From an uncultured Nitrospiraceae bacterium (GTDB lineage: Bacteria > Nitrospirota > Thermodesulfovibrionia > Thermodesulfovibrionales > UBA6898), in NCBI GenBank assembly GCA_963811165.1, contig CAWEQH010000001.1, positions 288,001 through 352,000 of the forward strand: a DNA stretch of 64,000 nucleotides, read 5' to 3'. The position numbers and the translations under genes were made by a program. The notes below the pieces were generated by a model. The model made no database searches, was not told the DNA's origin, and saw only the letters and a program-made list of their open reading frames with translations. Of this stretch, positions 38,117 to 54,486 are shown one piece after another; the first letter of the stretch is position 1, and every line of letters begins with the position of its first letter.

Positions 38117-38812
38117 ATGGCTGATATCCCCAGAATTCTTGCTGTCGATGACGAACCCGATATTGTCGAGTTGCTCTCCTACAATCTCAGAAAGGAGGGG
38201 TTTACCGTTTCAACGGCATCCGACGCGGAGGAGGCACTGGAAAAGATCAGGGCTGAGGACTTTTCCCTCGTTCTTCTGGATCTTATGCTCCCCGGTATGC
38301 AGGGCATGGAACTCTGCCGTGTCCTTAAGAAAGACCCCAAAACGGCAAATCTCCCCATCATTATGCTTACGGCCAAGGTCGAAGAAGTAGACAGGGTCCT
38401 CGGCCTTGAGTCCGGGGCCGATGACTATATCACAAAGCCCTTCAGTCCGAGGGAACTCGTGGCGCGCGTTAAGGCCGTCTTAAGGAGGACCGCCCCGAAG
38501 GCCCCAGGAGAGGATATTATCCGGATCGGGGAACTCATGATAAACAGGGAAACATATGCCGTGACAAAGAATGATGTCTTGTTAGATCTCAGCGCCACGG
38601 AGTTTAAACTGCTTCTCTATCTCATTGAAAGAAGAGGCAAGATATACGACCGGGAACACCTACTCAAAGCCGTATGGAAGCATGAGGCCTATGTTGAACC
38701 GAGGACTATCGATGTGCATATCAGAAGGCTGAGAACGCAGATCGAAGACGACCCTTCGAATCCGAAGTATATCAAGACAAGAAGAGGCATCGGATATTAT
38801 TTTGACGTATGA
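38117..38812 (+). CDS. phoB: PhoB-like response regulator (copy 2, no adjacent kinase)
   Basis: Closely similar to 30894..31595; RTIDVHIRRLR recognition helix. Confidence 0.85.
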   Translation: MADIPRILAVDDEPDIVELLSYNLRKEGFTVSTASDAEEALEKIRAEDFSLVLLDLMLPGMQGMELCRVLKKDPKTANLPIIMLTAKVEEVDRVLGLESGADDYITKPFSPRELVARVKAVLRRTAPKAPGEDIIRIGELMINRETYAVTKNDVLLDLSATEFKLLLYLIERRGKIYDREHLLKAVWKHEAYVEPRTIDVHIRRLRTQIEDDPSNPKYIKTRRGIGYYFDV

Positions 38813-40098
38813 TGGACCCTGGCGAACACACTGATACCGGCGGTGCCCCCTTATCGCCTGCAGCATCGGGCAATCCCTTTCTCTGGGGTGTCGCAACATC
38901 TGCCTTTCAACTCGAAGGCTCTCCTTATGCAGACTGGACGACATGGGATGAAATACTGAGTCAAAAGCCCGACATCACCAACCATTACCTTCTTTACAAG
39001 GAGGACCTTGCCTTATTAAAAGACCTCGGGGTAAATGCGTACCGGTTCTCTCCTGAGTGGAGCAGGATACAGCCGCGCGAAAAGGTCTGGGACGAGAAGG
39101 CGATAAGGCATTATCAGGAGGTTGTAGAGATACTCGTCAAAAATAATATCGAACCCATGCTTACCCTGAATCACTTTACGCATCCCCTCTGGTTCATAAA
39201 AAAATATCCATGGCATGAAGAGGCATCAGTTGAAAAATTTCTGACATTTGCGGATAAGATGGTTAAGACCCTGGAAGGGGTGCGGTACTGGATCACCTTC
39301 AATGAACCGTACGTCCTTGTCCTGGCCGGCTACTTTGAGGGCTGTACGCCCCCCGCGATCAAAGATGCGTCACTTGGGGTGAAAGCCCTGACGAACATTC
39401 TTAAGGCCCATGGGGCGGCCTATGACCTCATCCACTCACATATTCCGGATGGGATGGTGAGCATAGCGCATAATATGGCGTCATTTGCCCCATGGAGCAG
39501 ATGGAACCCCCTCGACAGGCTTCTCGTAAAGATCACGAAACACTTTTACAACCATTCGCTCCTGGATGCCTTCCTAAACGGCACGCTGAGCGTGAAGTTC
39601 CCTTTCAGGAGGGTGCTCGAGATTGAAGTTCCTATCAAGGGGAAACTCGACTTTTTCGGGGTCAATTATTACACGAGGATGCATCTTCGTTTCAATCCTT
39701 TCAAGAAAATGGGGATTGAGATAAGACACAGGGACATCGATGGTCAGGGACTCACCGACATGGGATGGGAAATCCATCCGCGCGGACTTGAAAAGGTCCT
39801 GAGATACGCCTCGAAACTCAATGTCCCCCTGATAATAACGGAAAACGGAATCGCAACCCGCGACAGTCAAAGGAAGATAAAGTTTATGCAGGGGCATATC
39901 GATGTTCTCGAAAAGTGCAGACGGGAAGGGAGGGACATCCGAGGATATTTTTATTGGACCCTGATCGACAACTATGAATGGCTCCAGGGACTCGACTCAA
40001 GGTTTGGACTCTATACCGTTGACTTCCAGACCCTGGAGCGCAGACCCACGAACGCGGCCGCCTACTACTCATACCTTATTAAGAGCCGGAAACTCTGA
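38809..40098 (+). CDS. Glycoside hydrolase family 1 (beta-glycosidase)
   Basis: FLWGVATSAFQLEG, YRFS.EWSRI, TFNEP, ITENG, DNYEW. Confidence 0.95.
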   Translation: MMDPGEHTDTGGAPLSPAASGNPFLWGVATSAFQLEGSPYADWTTWDEILSQKPDITNHYLLYKEDLALLKDLGVNAYRFSPEWSRIQPREKVWDEKAIRHYQEVVEILVKNNIEPMLTLNHFTHPLWFIKKYPWHEEASVEKFLTFADKMVKTLEGVRYWITFNEPYVLVLAGYFEGCTPPAIKDASLGVKALTNILKAHGAAYDLIHSHIPDGMVSIAHNMASFAPWSRWNPLDRLLVKITKHFYNHSLLDAFLNGTLSVKFPFRRVLEIEVPIKGKLDFFGVNYYTRMHLRFNPFKKMGIEIRHRDIDGQGLTDMGWEIHPRGLEKVLRYASKLNVPLIITENGIATRDSQRKIKFMQGHIDVLEKCRREGRDIRGYFYWTLIDNYEWLQGLDSRFGLYTVDFQTLERRPTNAAAYYSYLIKSRKL

Positions 40099-40199
40099 TC
40101 TTGTCGCTATTACTTCCCTATGCCGGCGACAGTTCCCGCCTCCGATAAGTGCTACACTGCCCGTAGCACCTGCCCCAGAGAGTGAAACCGCCTGCAATC

Positions 40200-40253
40200 T
40201 TCACGGAAATGTAATCCTTCCTTAATAATGCTGTAACTATCATATCGTAAGCT
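40200..40253 (+). promoter_or_regulatory. Pho-box-like promoter of the PHP-glycosyltransferase operon (4 repeats)
   Basis: TTCAC 40200, GTAAT 40211, TTAAT 40222, GTAAC 40233, 10 bp, TAAGCT. Confidence 0.82.
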
Positions 40254-40290
40254 AACAACAGCATGGTGAATAAGTTGAGAACTGAGTGTA

Positions 40291-40983
40291 ATGCTGCTGT
40301 GTGATTTTCACATCCACACTACCTATTCAGACGGCTCTGTGGAGCTGAGAAGGACAATCGATCTTTTCGGACAGGCAGGCTTTGATGTTATTTCAATAAC
40401 GGACCATGTGGTCAATGGTGATAATCCGCTTGGAAAGCTCGCACATCGTTTTAAGTATTCTGTAACAGCCGATAACTTCAGTAAATATATTTCCCACATA
40501 AAAGAAGAGGCGCAAAGGGCGCAAGACAAATATGACATGCTCGTCATTCCCGGAATTGAAATAACCAAGAACCGTCTCACCATAGACAACTCAGCCCATA
40601 TGCTGATCATCGATGTCCAGGACTTCATCCCCGCGTGCATAAGTTATGAAGAGATATTCCTGGCGGCGAAGAGACAGAATGCCTTGACGATAGCATGCCA
40701 CCCGCATTATATGTCGGCAAAGAGCGACCGGGACACACTCTTTCTCTGGAACAACAGGGAAAAATATGCCCGCTACATCGACGCATGGGAGATCGCCAAC
40801 AGAGACGACGTCTTCAATGTAATAAGCCTCAAAAAATATCCGTATATCGCAAACAGCGACTTCCACAAGCCCAGACATCTTTACTCCTGGAAGACGCTTC
40901 TGAATTGCGCGAAAGACATAGACTCCATAAAACAGTGCATCAAACATAACAAGGGCGTTGCATTGACACTCTTTAGAAATTAG
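40291..40983 (+). CDS. PHP-domain phosphoesterase
   Basis: DFHIHTTYSDG, ITDH, PGIE, CHP, NSDFH. Confidence 0.9.
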   Translation: MLLCDFHIHTTYSDGSVELRRTIDLFGQAGFDVISITDHVVNGDNPLGKLAHRFKYSVTADNFSKYISHIKEEAQRAQDKYDMLVIPGIEITKNRLTIDNSAHMLIIDVQDFIPACISYEEIFLAAKRQNALTIACHPHYMSAKSDRDTLFLWNNREKYARYIDAWEIANRDDVFNVISLKKYPYIANSDFHKPRHLYSWKTLLNCAKDIDSIKQCIKHNKGVALTLFRN

Positions 40984-40986
40984 GAG

Positions 40987-42201
40987 GTGAACATGATTTT
41001 ATTCTGGATCTTTGCGGGTATTACTTGCTTTGGGATAATCGGATATCTGCTTCAAATTGTCGCGGTCCGGTCATATACGGCATCCCCCAACTCAGGGGAA
41101 AGCGTACGCTTTCCCCAATCTTTTTCTCCGGTCTCAATCCTTAAGCCGCTCAAAGGCCTTGATGATGGGCTGTTTGACAACCTCGAAAGCTTCTGCAATC
41201 TTGAGTATCCCCACTATGAGATCATCTTTGCGCTTCAGAACCAGAATGATCCGGCCCATAAAGTGGTAAAAAAGGTAAAGGAGAAATACCCTTTAAAAGA
41301 CATAACCATTGTCGTTGAACATTGTGATGAGGGGCTGAACCCCAAGGTCAACAATCTGATCCCGGCATATAAGAGGGCCAAATATGATCTGATATTGATA
41401 AGCGACAGCAATGTCCGTGTGGAAAAAGACTACCTGGCTGCCATTGCCGGACACATGGAAGATCCGTCGGTCGGACTTGTCAGCAATATGATCAGGGGCG
41501 TACACGGCCGGTCCCTTGGGGCCCTCATGGAAAATCTCCACCTGAACACATTTATTGTGGGAAGCGTCTGCTTCCTCGATAAATATCTTAAGATGCCCTG
41601 TGTCGTGGGCAAGTCAATGCTGATGAGGAAGGCCGAGCTTGAAGCCATCGGGGGCTTCAGGTCTGTCAAGGACTTTCTTGCGGAGGACTACATAATCGGC
41701 CAAAGAATTCACGCACTCGGCAAAAGGGTCGTCCTTTCCGGCCATCTTATCAACAATGTCAATGAATATTGGGGGATAAAGAGGTTTATTAACCGTCATA
41801 CAAGATGGGGAAAGCTGAGATGGCAAATCGGAGGCGCGAAGTATTTCTCCGAATTGGCCGGCAATGCCGTATTCATGTCCTTCATGCCGATGGTCTTCAT
41901 GCCTGCGTCAAAAATTGCTTTATTGCTGGCTGCGGCGGTGAGTTCTCTGAAAATAGTCCATGATTTCTACATCGGCAACAAACTTCGCGCCGATATGAAC
42001 CCCCTGCTCTATTTGCTGTCCCCTGTCAAGGACCTTATTATCGGATTCGTATGGTTTGTGCCGATCCTGAGCAACACCGTAGCCTGGAGGGGCAACAGAT
42101 ATATCATCGGCAAGGAATCGATGCTCTCACCGTATCCGGAGACCGGCATATGGGCATGGCGGTACAGGATCATGGACGTGATAAAAACAAGGATTGCTTA
42201 G
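40987..42201 (+). CDS. Ceramide glucosyltransferase/HpnI-like GT21 glycosyltransferase
   Basis: VSILKPLKG, GLNPKVNNL, ISDS, GKSM, LAEDY, RHTRW; N- and C-terminal TM helices. Confidence 0.9.
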   Translation: MNMILFWIFAGITCFGIIGYLLQIVAVRSYTASPNSGESVRFPQSFSPVSILKPLKGLDDGLFDNLESFCNLEYPHYEIIFALQNQNDPAHKVVKKVKEKYPLKDITIVVEHCDEGLNPKVNNLIPAYKRAKYDLILISDSNVRVEKDYLAAIAGHMEDPSVGLVSNMIRGVHGRSLGALMENLHLNTFIVGSVCFLDKYLKMPCVVGKSMLMRKAELEAIGGFRSVKDFLAEDYIIGQRIHALGKRVVLSGHLINNVNEYWGIKRFINRHTRWGKLRWQIGGAKYFSELAGNAVFMSFMPMVFMPASKIALLLAAAVSSLKIVHDFYIGNKLRADMNPLLYLLSPVKDLIIGFVWFVPILSNTVAWRGNRYIIGKESMLSPYPETGIWAWRYRIMDVIKTRIA

Positions 42202-45410: not shown

Positions 45411-45839
45411 ATGGAAAAAAAGAAGGTCCTTTTTGTATGCATCCATAACAGTGCCCGCAGCCAGATGGCGGAGGCATTCCTCAATCTTCTGGCAGGGGAC
45501 CGGTTTGAGGCTGAAAGCGCAGGCCTTGCTCCAGGCAGACTAAATCCTTTGGCGGTGGAAGTGATGAAGGAAATAGGGATCGATATCTCTCAGAAAGGAA
45601 CACAGGGCATCTTTGATTTTATCAAGAAGGGGAAACTGTTCCATTATGTGATCACCGTCTGTGACGAGGCGAACGCCGCCCGATGTCCTGTCTTCCCCGG
45701 ATATGCCAGGAGGGTGCACTGGAGTTTCAAGGACCCTTCGAGTCTTGATGGGCCGTACGAGGAGAGATTACGTAAGACAAGGGAAATCCGCGACGAGATA
45801 CGGGCCCGCATAGAAGGGTGGATAAAGGAAGTCAGTTAG
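45411..45839 (+). CDS. arsC: Arsenate reductase, LMW-PTP/thioredoxin-coupled family
   Basis: [21 protein letters not shown]....CPVFPG, HWSF.DP. Confidence 0.88.
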
Positions 45840-45973: not shown

Positions 45974-46009
45974 TTAACCGGATCGTATTTGCGGAAGAAG
46001 GGAACTCAT

Positions 46010-46279
46010 ATGGTCACCTATATCATCAAACATCATGTCCCGGGCCGGATAAGACTGGATGTCCCCGCATTGAGAAAAATTGCCGAGCATAGGCTGAAAA
46101 AGATATCGAAGGCCATGACAAGGCTTCCTGTCTTTATGGGGATAAGAGACCTCACGGTGAATCCCGGCAACGGCAGCGTAGCTATTGAATATGACTCCGA
46201 AGTTGTCGACATTATTGATTACCTGGAGGACATGTCAGTTATCGTGGAAACGCTCGATTGTCTGGAAAGACACCGGTGA
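46010..46279 (+). CDS. HMA2-type domain protein (HxxxGRxR motif, no CxxC)
   Basis: KHHVPGRIRL and VNPGNGSV.IEYD. Confidence 0.78.
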   Translation: MVTYIIKHHVPGRIRLDVPALRKIAEHRLKKISKAMTRLPVFMGIRDLTVNPGNGSVAIEYDSEVVDIIDYLEDMSVIVETLDCLERHR

Positions 46280-46936: not shown

Positions 46937-47230
46937 ATGGCATTGCTTGATGATGTATTTAAAGGCGGCAACGTGGTAACAGGCTTGGCTATCGGCATCG
47001 GAGCGGCGGTGCTCGGACCGGTTGTATTGCCTATACTGGCCGGGGCTGCGAAACCGTTGGCGAAGGCCGTGATAAAGGGGGGCCTTGCGCTATGTGCAAA
47101 AGGGAAGGAGTCAGCTGCTGAGTTCGGCGAGGTCTTTGAAGACATTGTTGCAGAAGCGAAAGCGGAACTCGCGGAAGAGCACGAAAAGGCAATTCCCGTT
47201 CCGCCTGCCGAAGCTGAAGAAAGTGTCTAA
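46937..47230 (+). CDS. DUF5132-like (FezA-like) small membrane protein
   Basis: GLAIGIGAAVLGP GxxxG helix, KPLAKAVIKGG, acidic E.FEDIVAEAKAE C-terminus; AAGGAG RBS. Confidence 0.8.
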   Translation: MALLDDVFKGGNVVTGLAIGIGAAVLGPVVLPILAGAAKPLAKAVIKGGLALCAKGKESAAEFGEVFEDIVAEAKAELAEEHEKAIPVPPAEAEESV

Positions 47231-47708
47231 TACCCCGGAAGCATATATAGGCCATAAGATGAATGGCAGATTGAGACTAAGGATCCCTTCGAAAAAAAAA
47301 GACGGCCTATATATGAAAAAAATTACCGAGGAATTCTCATCACTCCCGGGCATTGCGCAGGTAATCGTGAACACCGAGACATCGAGCGTTCTCTTCCTGC
47401 ATGATCTTTCGGAAGACGCAATCATGGGACATCTCAGTGCAAGCGGTCTCTTCCGGCTTTCCGGGGCTCCCACAGGCCGGGGAGACGTGCATCACGGAAT
47501 CAAAGGATGTTTTCGGGAGATGTCCGGCAAAGTCGAGAAGGCGACAGGAGGAACGATTGGCATCAGTGAAGTTGCCTTCCTCGCATTGTTTGGCGCCGGG
47601 GTTATGCAGATAGGTCGGGGGAATTTTACTGCGATCCCCTGGTACACGGCATTTTGGTATGCGCTTAATATTTTTCTGAAATCGGACGCACAGAAGGCCG
47701 GAGAATAG
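47223..47708 (+). CDS. HMA2-domain membrane protein (FezC-like)
   Basis: GTG overlapping the upstream stop; HKMNGRLRL, VNTETSSVL..HD, C-terminal hydrophobic segment with PWYTAFWYA. Confidence 0.78.
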   Translation: MSNTPEAYIGHKMNGRLRLRIPSKKKDGLYMKKITEEFSSLPGIAQVIVNTETSSVLFLHDLSEDAIMGHLSASGLFRLSGAPTGRGDVHHGIKGCFREMSGKVEKATGGTIGISEVAFLALFGAGVMQIGRGNFTAIPWYTAFWYALNIFLKSDAQKAGE

Positions 47709-47838: not shown

Positions 47839-48522
47839 ATGTCTCGGGAAGAAGTCATGCGCGGTGCCGGTTATGCAGAAGACGTAAGCAAGGCCGGGGC
47901 GACTGTAAAAGAGGGCGTAATCAGCAGCCTTAAAGGTCTCAATGAGATTGAGGCGGAAATCGTGAGTCTCGTGAGGAACACGGTCTCAAACACTTTGCGT
48001 GCAACGGGAGAAGTGGCGATCGAAAGTGTCTCCATTTCAAAGGATGTCATCAAGGGGGCTATCCAGGCCACCGAGGAGGTCGGAACAGGACTTATCCTGA
48101 GCACGAAAAGTGTTGCCAAAGGGGTAATCATGGGGGTGAGCGATGTAGGCGGCGATGTGGTTACGGTAGCAAGCCAGACAGTTAAAGGCGCGGTTAAGGG
48201 GGCCGCTGAAGTCGGCGCGGATGTCGCCCTTGTTGCAAGACGATCTGTCGATGGAGTGATCGAGGCGACAAAGGAGATAGGAGGGAATGTGGAAGAAGTC
48301 GCGAAAGTGGCGGTCGGAGGGGCGATTGAGGCTGCAGGGACAATCGGTAATACGGCGGTGAAGGCTGTGAGGGACATGCTCGTCGGCGTAGTCGAGGGCG
48401 TAAAGGAGATTGCGGGCGCGGCCTTGCCTAAACCGAGGACCTCTTCCCCAACAGCAACAAAAGCTCCTGCGTCAAAACCGGTTGCTGCGAAAAAAGAGGC
48501 TGCGACCAGGAAAAAGAAGTAA
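47839..48522 (+). CDS. Hypothetical 11/22-residue-repeat amphipathic helical protein with Pro/Ala/Lys tail
   Basis: AAGGAGG RBS; about 16 consecutive 11-mers (e.g. AIQATEEVGTG, AVKGAAEVGAD, VIEATKEIGGN). Confidence 0.85.
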   Translation: MSREEVMRGAGYAEDVSKAGATVKEGVISSLKGLNEIEAEIVSLVRNTVSNTLRATGEVAIESVSISKDVIKGAIQATEEVGTGLILSTKSVAKGVIMGVSDVGGDVVTVASQTVKGAVKGAAEVGADVALVARRSVDGVIEATKEIGGNVEEVAKVAVGGAIEAAGTIGNTAVKAVRDMLVGVVEGVKEIAGAALPKPRTSSPTATKAPASKPVAAKKEAATRKKK

Positions 48523-48534
48523 GAATAATACCCC

Positions 48535-51500
48535 GTGGTTCGGCCTGTACACGTTGCGGTAAAAGGAAGGGCCCGCTTTAAAGTAGCGGGCCTTTACCGG
48601 TCGGCCCTGCTCAAGGAGCGGATTGAACTCACCCTTAATTCACTCGACGGAATAAGAGAGGCATCGGCCGACACACGTACAGGCAATGTTTTAGTATATT
48701 TCAATTCCGAAAATACTCCCGGGTCAATCGCATCGGCAATCGCCGCTTCAATTTATGACTACAAATCTCAGCATCGTAACAACAATTCGCCGGAAAACAA
48801 AAAAGACGCAGTCGGCATCATACCAGCGCCGCGGGAAGAAGCTTCCAAAGAGCAGGTCAGGCCTGCTATCACGAGGAGGAAGTTAAGAAAGAGCATCATC
48901 AAGGCAGAGGAGCAAAAGCCTGATCCCTGGCACCAGATGGATGTCTGTGAAGTGGCCGGGCGGTTTGGCACCTCCCAGCACTACGGGCTTCCCAGTGACA
49001 TCGCAAAAACGAATCTGAAGCGGTATGGTCTCAATGTCCTTCCGGAGGCGGTGCCCCGCTCCGGGTTAAGCATCTTTCTGGGCCAGTTTAATTCACTTCC
49101 TGTGGCTCTGCTCGGCGTTGCTGCCGGGATTTCAATAGCCACGGGAGGCGTCGCCGACGCGATCGTAATTGCGGGGGTGGTGGTTATCAATGCGGTAATA
49201 GGGTATGGGACTGAAACCCAGACCGAAAAGACGATCCATGCATTGAAAAGCCTTGTCAGACCTTCTGCAACGGTCAAGCGGGACGATCAAATCATAGAGC
49301 TGGGAGCAGAGGAAGTCGTCCCCGGAGATCTGCTGATCCTCAGGCCAGGCAGTTATGTGCCGGCAGATGCAAGACTGCTTGAGACATATCACCTCAGTGT
49401 TGACGAGTCTGCCCTTACGGGAGAGAGTCTCCCTGTAATGAAGACAAGTCTGCCTTGCGCTGTCGAAGAAATCCCCCTTGCAGACAGGATCAACATGGTC
49501 TATATGGGGACTCTAGTGACCGGGGGGCAAGGGACCGCCGTGGTCGTGGCAACGGGCAGGTTTACCGAGATAGGAAAGATCCAGGCGCTCGTGGGAGAGG
49601 CGGAATCTCCAGACACCCCAATGGAGCGGCAGCTTCATAAGATGGGCACACAGCTAGTCTTTATAAGCGGAGCTGTCTGCGGACTTGTCTTTATTGTCGG
49701 ACTTCTGCGCGGATACGGTTTTTTGGAGATGCTCAAGAGTTCCATATCTCTTGCCGTTGCCGCAGTGCCGGAGGGACTCCCTACCGTTGCAACTACAACC
49801 CTGGCCCTGGGGATCAGGGACATGAGGCGGCACAACGTGCTCATCAGGCATCTAAACGCGGTCGAAACGCTGGGGGCCGTGCAGACGATCTGTCTTGACA
49901 AGACGGGGACAATCACGATGAACAGGATGTCGGTAGTCGCTGTCCATACCGGCATGAAACGATATGAGGTCTCAAATGGGACAATCGCGGCTTCACGGCA
50001 GAAGGTGAGCCCCTATTCAGTCGACGAACTTCTGAGACTCTTGCACGTGAGCGTGCTCTGCAGCGAAAGCGAGGTCGAAAGGGAAAAAGGTACTTATGCG
50101 GTCAGCGGCTCTCCTACCGAAAACGCCCTGATCTATATGGCGTTGAACGCCGGCATTAATGCCGTTTCTCTCAGGGAGAGGTTCCCCGTGTTGAATATCA
50201 CTCATCGTTCGGAAAGTCACAATTATATGTCTACTGTCCACAAATCTGAAAATGGATCGGTCATCATTGCGGTAAAGGGGAGCCCCGGAGAGGTCCTTTC
50301 AATCTGCAGCTGGCACATGAAAGACGGAGAGAAGCTTCCTTTGACGGAGGAGGAAATGCTTTTCATAGAGACGGAAAATGAACGCATGGCCGGTCAGGCG
50401 CTCAGGGTCCTCGGCGTTGCCTATTCAGCAAAGGACGATGAGGCGGCCCTTTCCGAAGATAGAAGCGATCTTCATGAAGACCTGATATGGCTCGGGCTCG
50501 TCGGTATGGCAGACCCCATCAGGGAAAATGTGAAAGAACTGGTACACGGGTTCCACGAAGCCGGAATCGATACGGTCATGATAACGGGCGACCAGAGCCC
50601 TACCGCGTATGCGATAGGAAAGGAATTAAATCTGAGCGACAACGGAGACCTCGAAATCCTTGACTCTACGCACCTTGCGAAAATCGAGCCCGAGGTCATG
50701 AAGGCCCTCTGTGAAAGGGTACACGTCTTTGCCCGCGTCAGTCCTGCACATAAGCTCCAGATTGTCCAGGCGCTCCAGTCCGCCGGGAAAGTGGTTGCAA
50801 TGACCGGAGACGGGATCAACGACGGCCCGGCGCTCAAGGCAGCGGATATCGGGATCGCCATGGGCCATACGGGCACCGATGTCGCCCGCGAGGTGGCCGA
50901 CGTGATCATCGAAGACGACAATCTCGAAACAATGCTTATCGCGGTAAGCGAAGGAAGGACGATCTATAACAATATCAGAAAGTCCGTCCACTTTCTCCTT
51001 TCGACCAACCTCAGCGAGATCATGGTGATGTTCACCGCAATATCGGGAGGACTCGGACAGCCGCTCAATGCGATGCAGCTGCTGTGGATCAATCTTATTA
51101 GCGATATATTCCCGGGGCTTGCCCTTGCCCTTGAACTTCCGGAGCCGGATGTGTTGAGCCGCTCCCCCCGCGACCCACACGAGCCGATTGTAAGAAATTC
51201 CGATTTCAAGCGGATAGCTTTCGAGTCGGCAATGCTTTCCGCTGGTTCCCTGGGGGCTTACGGGTATGGCATCGCCCGCTATGGGATAGGACCGCGGGCA
51301 GGTTCGCTTGCATTCCTCAGCCTTACGGCAGGACAGCTTCTTCACGCCCTGAGCTGCCGTTCCGAGCAGCATAGCATGTTCAGCGCCGAGAGACTGCCCC
51401 GAAACAAGTATCTTGAAATGGCACTGGGCGGTTCCTTTGCGCTTCAGATACTGGCAGTGACTGTCCCCGGTCTTAGGAGACTTTTGGGAATAGGTCCTCT

Positions 51501-51594
51501 CAGTATCCTCGACGGTCTCGTGATCGGCGGAAGCGCCGCTTTTCCGCTTCTTGTAAACGAGGCGACGAAATCCTCCTTGAGGTTGGCAAGATGA
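48535..51594 (+). CDS. P2A-like (Ca2+-type) P-type ATPase with N-terminal HMA2 domain
   Basis: TGES, VAAVPEGL, DKTGT, KGSP, TGDGIND, STNLSE, QLLWINLISD; N-terminal HVAVKGRARF. Confidence 0.93.
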   Translation: MVRPVHVAVKGRARFKVAGLYRSALLKERIELTLNSLDGIREASADTRTGNVLVYFNSENTPGSIASAIAASIYDYKSQHRNNNSPENKKDAVGIIPAPREEASKEQVRPAITRRKLRKSIIKAEEQKPDPWHQMDVCEVAGRFGTSQHYGLPSDIAKTNLKRYGLNVLPEAVPRSGLSIFLGQFNSLPVALLGVAAGISIATGGVADAIVIAGVVVINAVIGYGTETQTEKTIHALKSLVRPSATVKRDDQIIELGAEEVVPGDLLILRPGSYVPADARLLETYHLSVDESALTGESLPVMKTSLPCAVEEIPLADRINMVYMGTLVTGGQGTAVVVATGRFTEIGKIQALVGEAESPDTPMERQLHKMGTQLVFISGAVCGLVFIVGLLRGYGFLEMLKSSISLAVAAVPEGLPTVATTTLALGIRDMRRHNVLIRHLNAVETLGAVQTICLDKTGTITMNRMSVVAVHTGMKRYEVSNGTIAASRQKVSPYSVDELLRLLHVSVLCSESEVEREKGTYAVSGSPTENALIYMALNAGINAVSLRERFPVLNITHRSESHNYMSTVHKSENGSVIIAVKGSPGEVLSICSWHMKDGEKLPLTEEEMLFIETENERMAGQALRVLGVAYSAKDDEAALSEDRSDLHEDLIWLGLVGMADPIRENVKELVHGFHEAGIDTVMITGDQSPTAYAIGKELNLSDNGDLEILDSTHLAKIEPEVMKALCERVHVFARVSPAHKLQIVQALQSAGKVVAMTGDGINDGPALKAADIGIAMGHTGTDVAREVADVIIEDDNLETMLIAVSEGRTIYNNIRKSVHFLLSTNLSEIMVMFTAISGGLGQPLNAMQLLWINLISDIFPGLALALELPEPDVLSRSPRDPHEPIVRNSDFKRIAFESAMLSAGSLGAYGYGIARYGIGPRAGSLAFLSLTAGQLLHALSCRSEQHSMFSAERLPRNKYLEMALGGSFALQILAVTVPGLRRLLGIGPLSILDGLVIGGSAAFPLLVNEATKSSLRLAR

Positions 51595-52802
51595 AAAAAG
51601 ACTTCATATTTACCTCCGAATCGGTTACCGAAGGCCATCCCGACAAACTCTGTGATCAGATCAGCGACGCGCTTGTCGACCACTTCCTTCAGCAGGACCC
51701 TTTTTCGCGGGTCATTGCCGAATGTGCCGTATCAACGGCGATCATTTTCATCGCCGCGAGGTTTTCGTCCGACGCCAGTGTCGATTTCCCGAATATCGCC
51801 AGACAGGTCATCAACCAGATCGGGTATGACCAGCAGGCCTTTAACGCCAAGACCTGCAGCATAGTCACAAGCCTCAAGGAAGTGCCCTCCGAGGAAAACC
51901 GGCGCTTTGACGAGAGAAATCTGACGGAAGACGAAATCGACGCTATCCCCGTCCGTAATCAGGTCACGGTATTCGGATTTGCCTGCAACCAGACGCCCTC
52001 GCTGATGCCCCTTCCGATCTGGCTCGCCCATCGACTTGCACGAAAACTGACCGCAGTGAGACTCCAAAAGGTACTTCCCTATCTGGCGCCCGACGGAAAA
52101 ACCCAGGTCGGCGTGGAGTATAAAAATGGAAGGCCCTACCGGGTCCATACCATAACGGTCATAGCCAGTCAGAGTAAGACGGAGAAGTCGGGCGGCCCCG
52201 ACCTTAAGAGTCTTTATGGTGATATGCTGGATACCGTCATTCGTCCTGCCTTTGTTGACGAGGAGATCAGGCCCGATGCCGACACAAGGATATTCATAAA
52301 CCCCGATGGTCCATTTATCACGGGCGGGCCCTCAGTGCATTCAGGGCTCACGGGGAGGAAAAATGCGATCGACACCTATGGTGAATATTCCAGGCAAAGC
52401 GGCGCGGCGCTCAGCGGCAAGGACCCTCTTCGGATAGACAGAATCGGCGCGTATGCCGCCCGGTATGCGGCAAAAAATATTGTTGCCGCGGGCATCGCCG
52501 CCGAATGCGAAATCCAGTTGAGTTATTCCATAGGGCTTTCCCGTCCCGTAAGCATCCAGGTGGAAACGTTCGGCACAGGCCGGATTTCCGACGAAGAGAT
52601 CTCCAGGATTATCGAAGGCCGGTTTGATTTCCGCCTCGCAGGGATTGTCCGCCAGTTCAACCTCAGATTTCTCCCTTCCATAATCAAGGGAGGTTTTTAC
52701 AGAAAACTCGCCTCGTATGGTCATGTCGGCAGAATGGATATCGGTCTTCCCTGGGAATTGACGGATAAGGCAGGCATAATTCGTGACGAAGTTGCCGGGT
52801 GA
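51591..52802 (+). CDS. Divergent methionine adenosyltransferase (MetK) paralog
   Basis: FTSESVTEGHPDK, PDGKTQV, GLTGRK..DTYG, SGKDP present; GEI, QS.DI and GAGDQG motifs altered. Confidence 0.88.
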   Translation: MKKDFIFTSESVTEGHPDKLCDQISDALVDHFLQQDPFSRVIAECAVSTAIIFIAARFSSDASVDFPNIARQVINQIGYDQQAFNAKTCSIVTSLKEVPSEENRRFDERNLTEDEIDAIPVRNQVTVFGFACNQTPSLMPLPIWLAHRLARKLTAVRLQKVLPYLAPDGKTQVGVEYKNGRPYRVHTITVIASQSKTEKSGGPDLKSLYGDMLDTVIRPAFVDEEIRPDADTRIFINPDGPFITGGPSVHSGLTGRKNAIDTYGEYSRQSGAALSGKDPLRIDRIGAYAARYAAKNIVAAGIAAECEIQLSYSIGLSRPVSIQVETFGTGRISDEEISRIIEGRFDFRLAGIVRQFNLRFLPSIIKGGFYRKLASYGHVGRMDIGLPWELTDKAGIIRDEVAG

Positions 52803-52851: not shown

Positions 52852-52953
52852 AAAATCTCCCCCCCTCTTTACCAGAGAGGGGATTATCCCTCTCCTTTTC
52901 TCCCCGGCGAACCCGCCTGTGTGCGGTGACAAAGGGAGGGCAGGTGGGATTTT
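52852..52953. repeat. REP/MITE-like palindromic element between convergent genes
   Basis: Inverted ends aaaatctccc/gtgggatttt; internal cccctct-ttaccag-agagggg hairpin; similar cccctttt-ctga-agggggat at about 10046-10064. Confidence 0.4.
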
Positions 52954-53001: not shown

Positions 53002-53877
53002 TTAGACGAAATCTTGCGTGAGATACTCTGCCGGTTCTTTCTGCTGTTTTTGTTCGTAGAGTTCAAGATAGATGTCTGAGAACCCGTACTTCTTGCGAAG
53101 ACTCTGTTTCATCTCCTTCACCCCGGCGCGGTCATAGGTCGTCCCGTTTGTTCTAATTCGTACCAGCAAGATAATTTTTTCCGGGGACAGACCCCATATG
53201 TGGAGATCCTTCACGCTGCTTATATCAGGGAAATTCGTATAGATGAATTTTTCAATCTCCGCGGGGTCTATCTTTGCGGGGTTGCCTTCCATGAGGATAT
53301 GCACGCTCTCCTTTACCAGAAAGTAGGTCGGATACGCGACGAGGAGTCCAATGATGACTGCGGTAAGGGGGTCCAGGAAATAGAGGCCCGTGAACTTTAT
53401 GACAATGGAAGAGGTTATGACCCCGACTGACCCCAGTGCATCGTTTGCGATCAGCAATAGCGCGCCTTTAAGGTTGATGTCTGCCGAGTGCCTGTAAAAC
53501 ATGATGAACCCATACGCATTGACTGCAAGTCCTATCACTGCGATTAAGAGTACCTTGTCTGCCTCGAGTGGCTGGGGATGCATGATCTTGCTATACGCGT
53601 CGGCAAAGACATAAAAAAGGAGAAACCCTACCAGTATCCCGTTGAACAGGCCCGAGATCACCTTGGCCCGTTCGTACCCGAATGTCTTGGTTTTGGTAGG
53701 CAGGCGCTTTGCGAGCCGCGCAACATAAAACGCGACGAATTGACCGGTGATATTGATCGCCATGAAAGAGGCATCGGTAACCAGGGCCAGGCTTCGGTAA
53801 TAAAGCCCGCCGAAGAGTTCGACAAAGAAGTATGCAATCGTCAGAAGGAGAACAGTTTTTTGCTGATTACTATCCAT
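53002..53877 (-). CDS. Cation diffusion facilitator (CzcD-like)
   Basis: SLALVTDA, TFGYER, INLKGA, DALGSVGV, ILMEG.P, DLHIW. Confidence 0.92.
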   Translation of the reverse strand: MDSNQQKTVLLLTIAYFFVELFGGLYYRSLALVTDASFMAINITGQFVAFYVARLAKRLPTKTKTFGYERAKVISGLFNGILVGFLLFYVFADAYSKIMHPQPLEADKVLLIAVIGLAVNAYGFIMFYRHSADINLKGALLLIANDALGSVGVITSSIVIKFTGLYFLDPLTAVIIGLLVAYPTYFLVKESVHILMEGNPAKIDPAEIEKFIYTNFPDISSVKDLHIWGLSPEKIILLVRIRTNGTTYDRAGVKEMKQSLRKKYGFSDIYLELYEQKQQKEPAEYLTQDFV

Positions 53878-54141: not shown

Positions 54142-54486
54142 ATGGACTACTACATCCATTATACGCATGGAAGGATGAGAATACAGACCCCTCATCTTCA
54201 CGAAAATCCCGCCAAGGCGAAAGAACTTGAGGACTTTCTCAAAAAAGTTTCGGGCATACTGTCGGTCGAAACAAATCCCGTTACGGGCAGCGCCCTGTTT
54301 TATTTTGACGAGAAAAAGATAAACTGCGAACAGATAATCTGCATGCTCGAAAAGAACCATTATCTTTGTCTCCTCAAGGCAGAGACGAACGATCAAGTCG
54401 TTAAAAAAACAGCCGAGAAGGTCCTGGGATTTGCCGAGAAGGTCGTTGTCGATTCCCTCGGGGAGGGACCCATTGAGGGTGAATGA
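54142..54486 (+). CDS. HMA2-type domain protein
   Basis: YYIHYTHGRMRI, VETNPVTGSALFYFD; GGGAGG RBS. Confidence 0.8.
   Translation: MDYYIHYTHGRMRIQTPHLHENPAKAKELEDFLKKVSGILSVETNPVTGSALFYFDEKKINCEQIICMLEKNHYLCLLKAETNDQVVKKTAEKVLGFAEKVVVDSLGEGPIEGE

Follow-up and report, generated by a model that had tools for sequence, protein, structure and literature searches.

A family of MetK-like proteins without the methionine ligands, encoded beside a P2A-type ATPase on which it is predicted to dock

The window analyzed here is a stretch of 64,000 nucleotides from an uncultured Nitrospiraceae bacterium (assembly GCA_963811165.1, contig CAWEQH010000001.1, positions 288,001 to 352,000), and coordinates refer to this window unless the contig is named. 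On its plus strand lies an intact open reading frame (ORF) at 51591-52802 for a paralog of MetK, the methionine adenosyltransferase (MAT) that makes S-adenosylmethionine (SAM), and the ATG of this ORF overlaps the TGA of an upstream P-type ATPase (pump) gene as ATGA. As argued below, the paralog is very probably not an ordinary SAM synthase, and the translationally coupled ATPase is its likely physical partner, with a rewired nucleotide pocket of its own. The features on which the argument turns are the following.

48535..51594, + strand: P2A-type (Ca/Mn-like) P-type ATPase of 1019 aa, with an N-terminal HMA_2/CoBaHMA-like domain
50206..50208, + strand: pump Arg558, at the position where ordinary P2 pumps have the adenine-stacking Phe
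50650..50667, + strand: pump P-domain strand 706-711 (LEILDS), the predicted docking strand; 13 ordinary pumps have an xxxx[ST]G-type sequence there, mostly ALSG
51591..52802, + strand: MetK-like protein of 403 aa with the MAT fold, the Mg/K/triphosphate ligands kept and the methionine pocket made cationic
51849..51881, + strand: strand 87-97 of the MetK-like central domain, the predicted pump-pairing strand; dimer-dimer face in canonical MAT, where E. coli Cys89/90 lies
52338..52340, + strand: His250, in place of E. coli Asp239 (ligand of the methionine amine and the ribose 3'-OH); a family signature (200/200 and 136/136 in the two sets defined below)
52431..52433, + strand: Arg281, replacing the methionine carboxylate ligand Lys270 of E. 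coli; R in 200/200, and R in 134 and H in 2 of 136

All three MAT Pfam domains (PF00438, PF02772, and PF02773) were present in the paralog, which scored 373.7 bits against the TIGR01034 metK model, above the 309.4 cutoff, and fell in MAT clusters of the ESM Atlas. Its AlphaFold model (pLDDT 86, pTM 0.86, with residues 256-276 poor in the monomer) matched the E. coli and Thermus MATs at TM values of 0.85-0.87 in Foldseek. Residues were compared with the E. coli MetK of the annotated genome, numbered with Met1. The ESVTEGHPDK, DGK, GRK, and SGKD motifs were unchanged, the Mg/K/triphosphate ligands H15, D17, E43, R245, K246, K266, and D272 (E. coli numbering) were all present, and the adenosine contacts D164 and F231 were found in the 403-aa protein itself. 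All five methionine ligands (E56, Q99, D119, D239, and K270) were replaced: besides the changes to His250 and Arg281, E56 became R57, the Q99-S-x-D-I loop was replaced (V98), and G118-D119 became R122-N123 with loss of the GAGDQG motif. D119 (D118 without Met1) is a methionine ligand of MetK as well. An earlier note, made from the sequence alone, had read the same motifs as intact, the same residues as substituted, and the ORF as complete and overlapping the ATPase gene by ATGA; each of these readings held against E. coli MetK, and the positions that it gave match the numbering with Met1. In the numbering of PMC3853416, methionine is bound by E55, Q98, D238, and K269, ribose by D163 and D238, and adenine by F230.

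To place these changes in a family, a protein search, which gave at least 120 relatives at 75% identity or more, was combined with a genome scan of GTDB, in which 235 relatives were confirmed and 80 loci of these were examined. The hosts of the 80 loci were Nitrospirota, Nostocales and other cyanobacteria, Desulfobacterota-type deltaproteobacteria, and one gammaproteobacterium. Two sets were used for counting, namely, 200 sequences (120 database proteins plus the 80 loci, partly redundant) and 136 loci in which pump and paralog are paired. H16, D18, K19, E44, K257, K277, and D283 were invariant in the 200 family sequences, and of the new pocket residues besides H250 and R281, R57 occurred in 186/200 and N123 in 178/200. 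Across 45 to 100% identity, the hydrolytic set (H16, D18, R256, K257, K277, and D283) was near-invariant. The ribose Asp (D168) was D or E in 136/136 paired loci, while the adenine-stacking Phe (F242) was F in 84/136 and aromatic in 92/92 canonical MetKs, suggesting that a nucleotide substrate is possible although adenine is not strictly read; a complete loss of the adenosine site was considered and is unsupported, as D168 remains D or E. About 20 distant clusters at 50% identity also kept the phosphate/metal set and nearly all of them the His and Arg, with variation at the K166 and F231 positions. Among 80 metagenome loci there were 73 canonical MetKs with both the D and the K, 6 family members, and 1 unreadable sequence, and the metagenome scan with distant members as queries returned mostly canonical MetK. 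In a plasmid search with the paralog, all of the matches listed were below 60% identity.

In a quick unrooted tree, 41 family rows formed one clade (SH-aLRT 100) apart from 47 other MetK rows. The dN/dS ratio against the nearest relative was 0.07 (0.016/0.244) and ranged from 0.05 to 0.17 across 8 pairs, with 3 more distant pairs saturated; the clade is thus under purifying selection. Taken together, the clade-wide substitutions and the purifying selection exclude chance or decay, so that a decaying duplicate was rejected and the simple decay that the earlier note had allowed for was not borne out. Several variants were also seen in or near the family. In one sub-lineage (L220:3396-4679 and P0123), E44 is changed to Q, R281 to H, and D283 to E, still behind an Arg-type pump. 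MetK-like proteins with altered active sites that fall outside the family in the tree (P0156, P0166, P0186, P0192, P0204, P0212, P0246, and P0265) may in some cases be repurposed or decayed, and three canonical MetKs (P0165, P0202, and P0216) carry long insertions just before SGKD that end in HN or GN and have an intein-like look. The gene-context data exclude the most distant members (P0122, P0127, P0129, P0132-P0134, P0141, P0142, P0153, and P0228).

The source genome encodes a canonical metK on another contig, as the earlier note had thought worth checking, with 595 bits against 373 for the paralog and 45% identity to it. Similarly, 15 of the 17 Nitrospirota carriers had a full canonical metK and one a partial copy, and in one carrier (G107, 89% complete) no canonical metK was found. 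Variants of human MAT at D258 (D258G) and K289 lost SAM synthesis and kept phosphatase activity, as did E. coli enzymes with swapped gating loops (PMC6850014). Judging from motif order, human D258 and K289 would correspond to H250 and R281 of the paralog, which looks like a MAT that has gained a cationic pocket and been cut down to the triphosphate half-reaction. The clade-wide substitutions, the canonical metK, and the human mutants (PMC6850014) hence support the earlier view that the protein is unlikely to make SAM; triphosphatase activity is plausible.

The partner pump has intact DKTGT, TGES, TGD, and GDGIND motifs, as well as the transmembrane residues E413, N825, E828, N853, and D857, the acids being placed by the SERCA transmembrane numbering. 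Its best matches among solved structures were P2A Ca2+-ATPases, and it lay below the curated cutoffs of TIGR01522 and TIGR01116; the transported ion may be Ca2+ or Mn2+. The distinguishing feature is Arg558, at the place of the PF-motif Phe present in LMCA1, SPCA1, and ACA8 and of F487 in SERCA. This residue was Arg in 136/136 paired pumps and in all five partnerless pumps of the clade, and Phe in the 13/13 next-best pumps. F487 is one of six ATP-cleft residues in SERCA (PMC7313052), and the equivalent F445 stacks adenine in MgtA (bioRxiv 2024.02.28.582502). Four of the six cleft residues (E529, K581, R624, and L626) were retained. The Arg-type pumps formed one clade (50 rows, SH-aLRT 100). 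One further pump (L260, G233:C5:499228-501978) combines TGDQ and a family-like P-domain strand with the ordinary Phe and no MetK-like neighbor; it branches beside ordinary pumps and may be an intermediate.

The association of the two genes is tight. In 78 of the 80 GTDB loci the pump lay directly upstream of the paralog, always within 300 bases and in 27 cases with the 4-base overlap; the two exceptions were a contig end and a locus with an apparent insertion element upstream. Four genome samples were drawn around carriers, with the center genome included in each: 121 Nitrospirota, 400 genomes of the class of the L080 host, 201 cyanobacteria, and 201 genomes of the phylum of the L076 host. The paralog occurred in 17/121, 15/400, 13/201, and 17/201 of these genomes, and 62/62 copies stood behind an Arg-type pump, including one frameshifted, one split, and one contig-cut pump and two loci with an ArsC-like gene in between. 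Conversely, 62 of 67 Arg-type pumps had the paralog and 5 did not; in the five partnerless genomes, MetK matches lay only in the canonical score range (motifs were read for two). Four of the partnerless pumps are on long branches; the nesting of three among the paired ones points to losses. None of the 73 canonical metagenome loci had an Arg-type pump adjacent to MetK. A gene fusion was considered for a 1268-aa open frame in L076 and rejected, the frame overlapping the pump in another frame.

A physical complex was modeled in one three-chain job with the paralog monomer, pump residues 440-820, and pump residues 1-95. The complex scored 0.62 against 0.00 for the best control, and the score mark used is reached by 116/157 solved complexes and 2/215 mismatched pairs, counts that are only roughly valid here; the runs agreed in at least 96% of contacts, with partner pLDDT of at least 89. 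In the model, the paralog sits against the P domain and the N domain of the pump, with pump strand 707-711 antiparallel to paralog strand 90-94 and further contacts from the N-domain helix that precedes R624 and the helix that follows TGD. The modeled site lies next to the TGD loop. On the MetK side, the modeled interface (31-35, 49-55, 62-68, and 87-97) is the central-domain face by which MAT dimers assemble into tetramers, and its sheet is connected to the gating loop (PMC8703375). The pump CoBaHMA domain (the chain of residues 1-95) made no confident contact, which is neutral either way. On the pump side, interface features unlike those of ordinary pumps include Q687 (136/136) and the distinct strand 706-711; an aromatic residue at 692 occurred in 47/53 pumps of the clade but in only 1/3 partnerless pumps examined, and predicted interface residues were eroded in two of these three. 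No comparable complex was found among the solved structures listed. On the strength of the model, the paralog probably binds the pump.

The pair lies in a run of plus-strand genes, and the following features belong to its neighborhood.

45411..45839, + strand: ArsC-like LMWPc protein; close to the module in 6/80 loci; two further loci have it between pump and paralog
45989..46279, + strand: small HMA_2 protein (E 7e-9)
46937..47230, + strand: DUF5132 protein with a GxxxG-type hydrophobic segment, FezA-like layout; in 47/80 loci
47223..47708, + strand: HMA_2 domain followed by a hydrophobic segment at the C terminus, a layout like that of FezC; the start is probably the GTG at 47223 (mechanical ORF from 47085)
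47839..48522, + strand: 227-aa protein built of 22-residue helical repeats and belonging to no Pfam family; present in 24/80 loci
52875..52894, + strand: terminator-like hairpin ending the run of plus-strand genes (consensus match only)
54142..54486, + strand: small HMA_2 protein, with homologues recurring close to the module

Separate HMA_2 proteins accompany the pair in 35/80 loci, and the repeat protein fell in unnamed clusters of the ESM Atlas. By analogy, the DUF5132, HMA_2, and repeat proteins may build a ferrosome-like compartment. Pst/Pho, CorA, ArsC, and PHA_gran_rgn genes recur in few, related loci, and among the recurrent neighbors there was no co-conserved biosynthetic, product-using, or phosphate-transporter gene. 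A promoter scan gave 10 sites against 7.8 expected, and no RNA run with a match was listed. Other observations concern the surroundings. A CDF-type cation exporter (53002-53877, minus strand) flanks the module, and a CDF match also borders L007, L095, and L264; a HMA_2-like gene related to that at 54142-54486 lies just past the window (contig CAWEQH010000001.1, 352634-352933). PHA_gran_rgn (PF09650) genes stand near the module in L049, L051, L062, L065, and L080, with similar ORFs in L217, L219, and L225 (delta- and gammaproteobacteria). A minus-strand tandem motif, TTCAT-N6-TGTAA, which is PHO-box-like, was seen upstream of the DUF5132 gene in L004, L010, L013, L014, L016, L019, L073, and L082 and was absent from the window. 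Farther upstream, 38809-42201 holds a run of glycoside hydrolase-, PHP-domain-, and ceramide-glucosyltransferase-like ORFs, named by eye.

We tentatively favor a reading in which the paralog serves the pump as a docked accessory subunit: by binding ATP or inorganic triphosphate (PPPi) and splitting it slowly, it would tune Ca/Mn-type pumping to phosphate and energy status. Docking would involve both the P domain and the N domain of the Arg558-type P2A pump, as in the model, and the paralog would hydrolyze ATP or PPPi slowly at the old MAT site, where the triphosphatase chemistry is presumably retained. Strand 87-97 runs straight into the gating loop and might act as a mechanical relay from the active site of the paralog to the nucleotide cleft of the pump, and the pump, its cation transport modulated in this way, would load the ferrosome-like compartment. 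Since 5 of the 67 Arg-type pumps do without the paralog, we infer a modulatory rather than an essential role.

Several observations weigh against this accessory-subunit reading. His250 and Arg281, both new and invariant, hint at a specific new ligand, which the reading does not name. One partnerless pump (G526) retains the interface residues. In the complex job, the paralog was folded as a monomer with its edge strand exposed, with custom alignments and three chains, and the controls were unrelated proteins; close cousins are known to pass as well, so canonical MetK might dock alike. Inter-protein covariation was null: over 136 pairs (effective number 62), the interface block held none of the top 200 pairs, where 1.05 were expected. 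The interface columns were no more conserved than average. Moreover, the link to phosphate is thin, with PhoU in 6, PsiE in 5, PhoH in 4, and PstS in 3 (one seed) of the 80 loci, mostly in related genomes, and a PHO box upstream of the DUF5132 gene reached the strict score in 2/39 cases against 0.5 expected, with none in the window.

There are several other explanations. The paralog might supply fuel, cleaving ATP at C5'-O or trimming PPPi and passing PPPi or pyrophosphate (PPi) to a pump that does not run on ATP and whose Arg558 binds phosphate. This would fit the complete Phe-to-Arg change in the paired pumps (136/136, against Phe in 13/13 next-best pumps) at an ATP-site residue of SERCA and MgtA, a dock predicted to border the TGD loop and the helix before R624, a MAT mutant that left adenosine and PPNP without SAM (PMC6850014), and a membrane H+-pyrophosphatase gene (PF03030) in the source genome (contig CAWEQH010000001.1, 272559-274583, ~13 kb before the window). 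We nevertheless consider it unlikely, because E529, K581, R624, and L626 are retained and an Arg is able to stack on adenine, because five Arg-type pumps have no paralog in the genome, and because spending an adenosine in each cycle would be costly. The fullest form of the idea, in which a pump without adenine recognition runs on PPPi or PPi from a docked MetK-derived enzyme and loads a ferrosome-like Ca/Mn phosphate body, is no less doubtful; if true, a pump run on PPi or PPPi would be categorically new, and in hosts without PPK the pair could also offer a new route to condensed phosphate. The paralog might instead supply phosphate, as a PPPi, PPi, or polyphosphate phosphatase tethered to the pump that frees inorganic phosphate where Ca/Mn loads a ferrosome- or acidocalcisome-like body, so that docking would only localize it. 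The DUF5132, HMA_2, and repeat proteins do resemble the GxxxG and R-rich/HMA proteins of the fez cluster, whose granules contain phosphorus and oxygen as well as iron (bioRxiv 2020.01.10.902569), Microcystis has DUF5132 and CoBaHMA genes next to ccyA, and the phosphate- and granule-related genes named above occur in a few loci. Against this stand a cytoplasmic dock, the lack of a co-conserved phosphate transporter among the recurrent neighbors, and a cluster that is not known to form any granule; in addition, the source genome (95% complete) yielded no ppk1, ppk2, or ppx, and 4/5 other carriers examined yielded no ppk1. This explanation, too, we regard as having little chance, and the polyphosphatase proposed by the earlier note is weakened by the same missing genes.

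The other activity that the earlier note had proposed, an adenosyltransferase for another acceptor, appears here as an adenosyl- or nucleosidyl transferase that would act on an anionic acceptor held by R57, H250, and R281, at the place from which the sulfur of methionine attacks C5' in MetK, and whose product would signal to or feed the pump. The catalytic H16 is invariant, D168 is always D or E, the new cationic residues are located at the nucleophile pocket, and, as archaeal MATs illustrate, rebuilding of this pocket is possible (PMC3853416). However, the adenine-stacking F242 gives way in distant members to G, S, P, V, or R, K170 is variable, and the recurrent neighbors include no biosynthetic or product-using enzyme, so that the proposal is weakened and we rate it a shade less probable than either supply scheme. 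A catalytically silent sensor or chaperone, which would bind PPi, phosphate, Mg, or K without turnover and affect the pump by binding alone, would account for a paralog that 5/67 pumps can dispense with and for conservative changes at E44, K19, or D283 in some members, but it is improbable given the near-invariant hydrolytic set. Least probable is that the protein is still a SAM synthase, its pocket rebuilt but working, or else a duplicate in decay. The TIGR01034 cutoff is passed and G107 has no canonical copy that was found; even so, the amine ligands E56 and D239 have both turned basic, an equivalent of D239 is retained even in archaeal MAT (PMC3853416), nearly all Nitrospirota carriers have a canonical copy, and purifying selection rules out decay.

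To our knowledge, the characterized MAT-fold proteins are all SAM synthases. A multi-phylum family that scores above the metK cutoff, is labeled metK in databases, and yet lacks the methionine ligands is of some consequence, as hundreds of entries are probably misannotated. The partner clade, in turn, has altered one of the most conserved ATP-binding residues of such pumps. If the predicted docking is true, a bacterial P-type ATPase would have the paralog as a soluble, enzyme-derived subunit. The accessory-subunit reading specifies residues on both partners, its carriers include culturable Nostocales, and the cluster might be a calcium analogue of the ferrosome. No description of the family or of the pump pairing was found in the open-license PMC and bioRxiv literature; the pairing is undescribed, and its components (a MAT fold, a P2A pump, and a fez-like cluster) are of known kinds.

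Compared with known systems, the paralog has in common with canonical MetK (EC 2.5.1.6; E. coli 1RG9 and 7LL3) the fold, the three domains, and the Mg/K/triphosphate ligands, but it differs in a longer acidic gating loop, a C-terminal insertion, a separate clade, a link to a pump gene, and a tetramer face that is predicted to bind the pump. The pump shares its catalytic motifs and transmembrane acids with P2A Ca2+-ATPases (LMCA1, SPCA1, and SERCA), whereas the N-terminal HMA_2 domain, the Arg in place of Phe, the distinct P-domain strand, and, in most members, a Gln in TM8 set it apart; we know of no soluble enzyme-derived subunit in those ATPases. The fez clusters (FezA, FezB, and FezC) likewise combine a pump bearing an N-terminal R-rich/HMA region with small GxxxG and HMA membrane proteins, a likeness by Pfam and motif only. 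FezB, however, is of type P1B-6, whereas the pump here is P2A (245 bits against a P1B cutoff of 346), no iron genes are co-conserved here, and the word "adenosyl" does not occur in the main text of bioRxiv 2020.01.10.902569. In the neighborhood of ccyA (calcyanin) in Microcystis, DUF5132 and HMA_2/CoBaHMA genes stand by a calcium transporter, as here, but our loci have no calcyanin-like recurrent neighbor and a P-type ATPase instead of CAX, and the main text of that study contains neither "metK" nor "adenosyl." Finally, in MAT heterocomplexes (MAT2A-MAT2B, and T3 SAMase-MAT, 7OCK), a partner is allosterically coupled to the MAT active site, as proposed here, and T3 SAMase binds intact MAT tetramers (PMC8406200). 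In those complexes it is a working SAM synthase that is regulated, whereas here a MAT-fold protein would serve a pump by way of its tetramer face.

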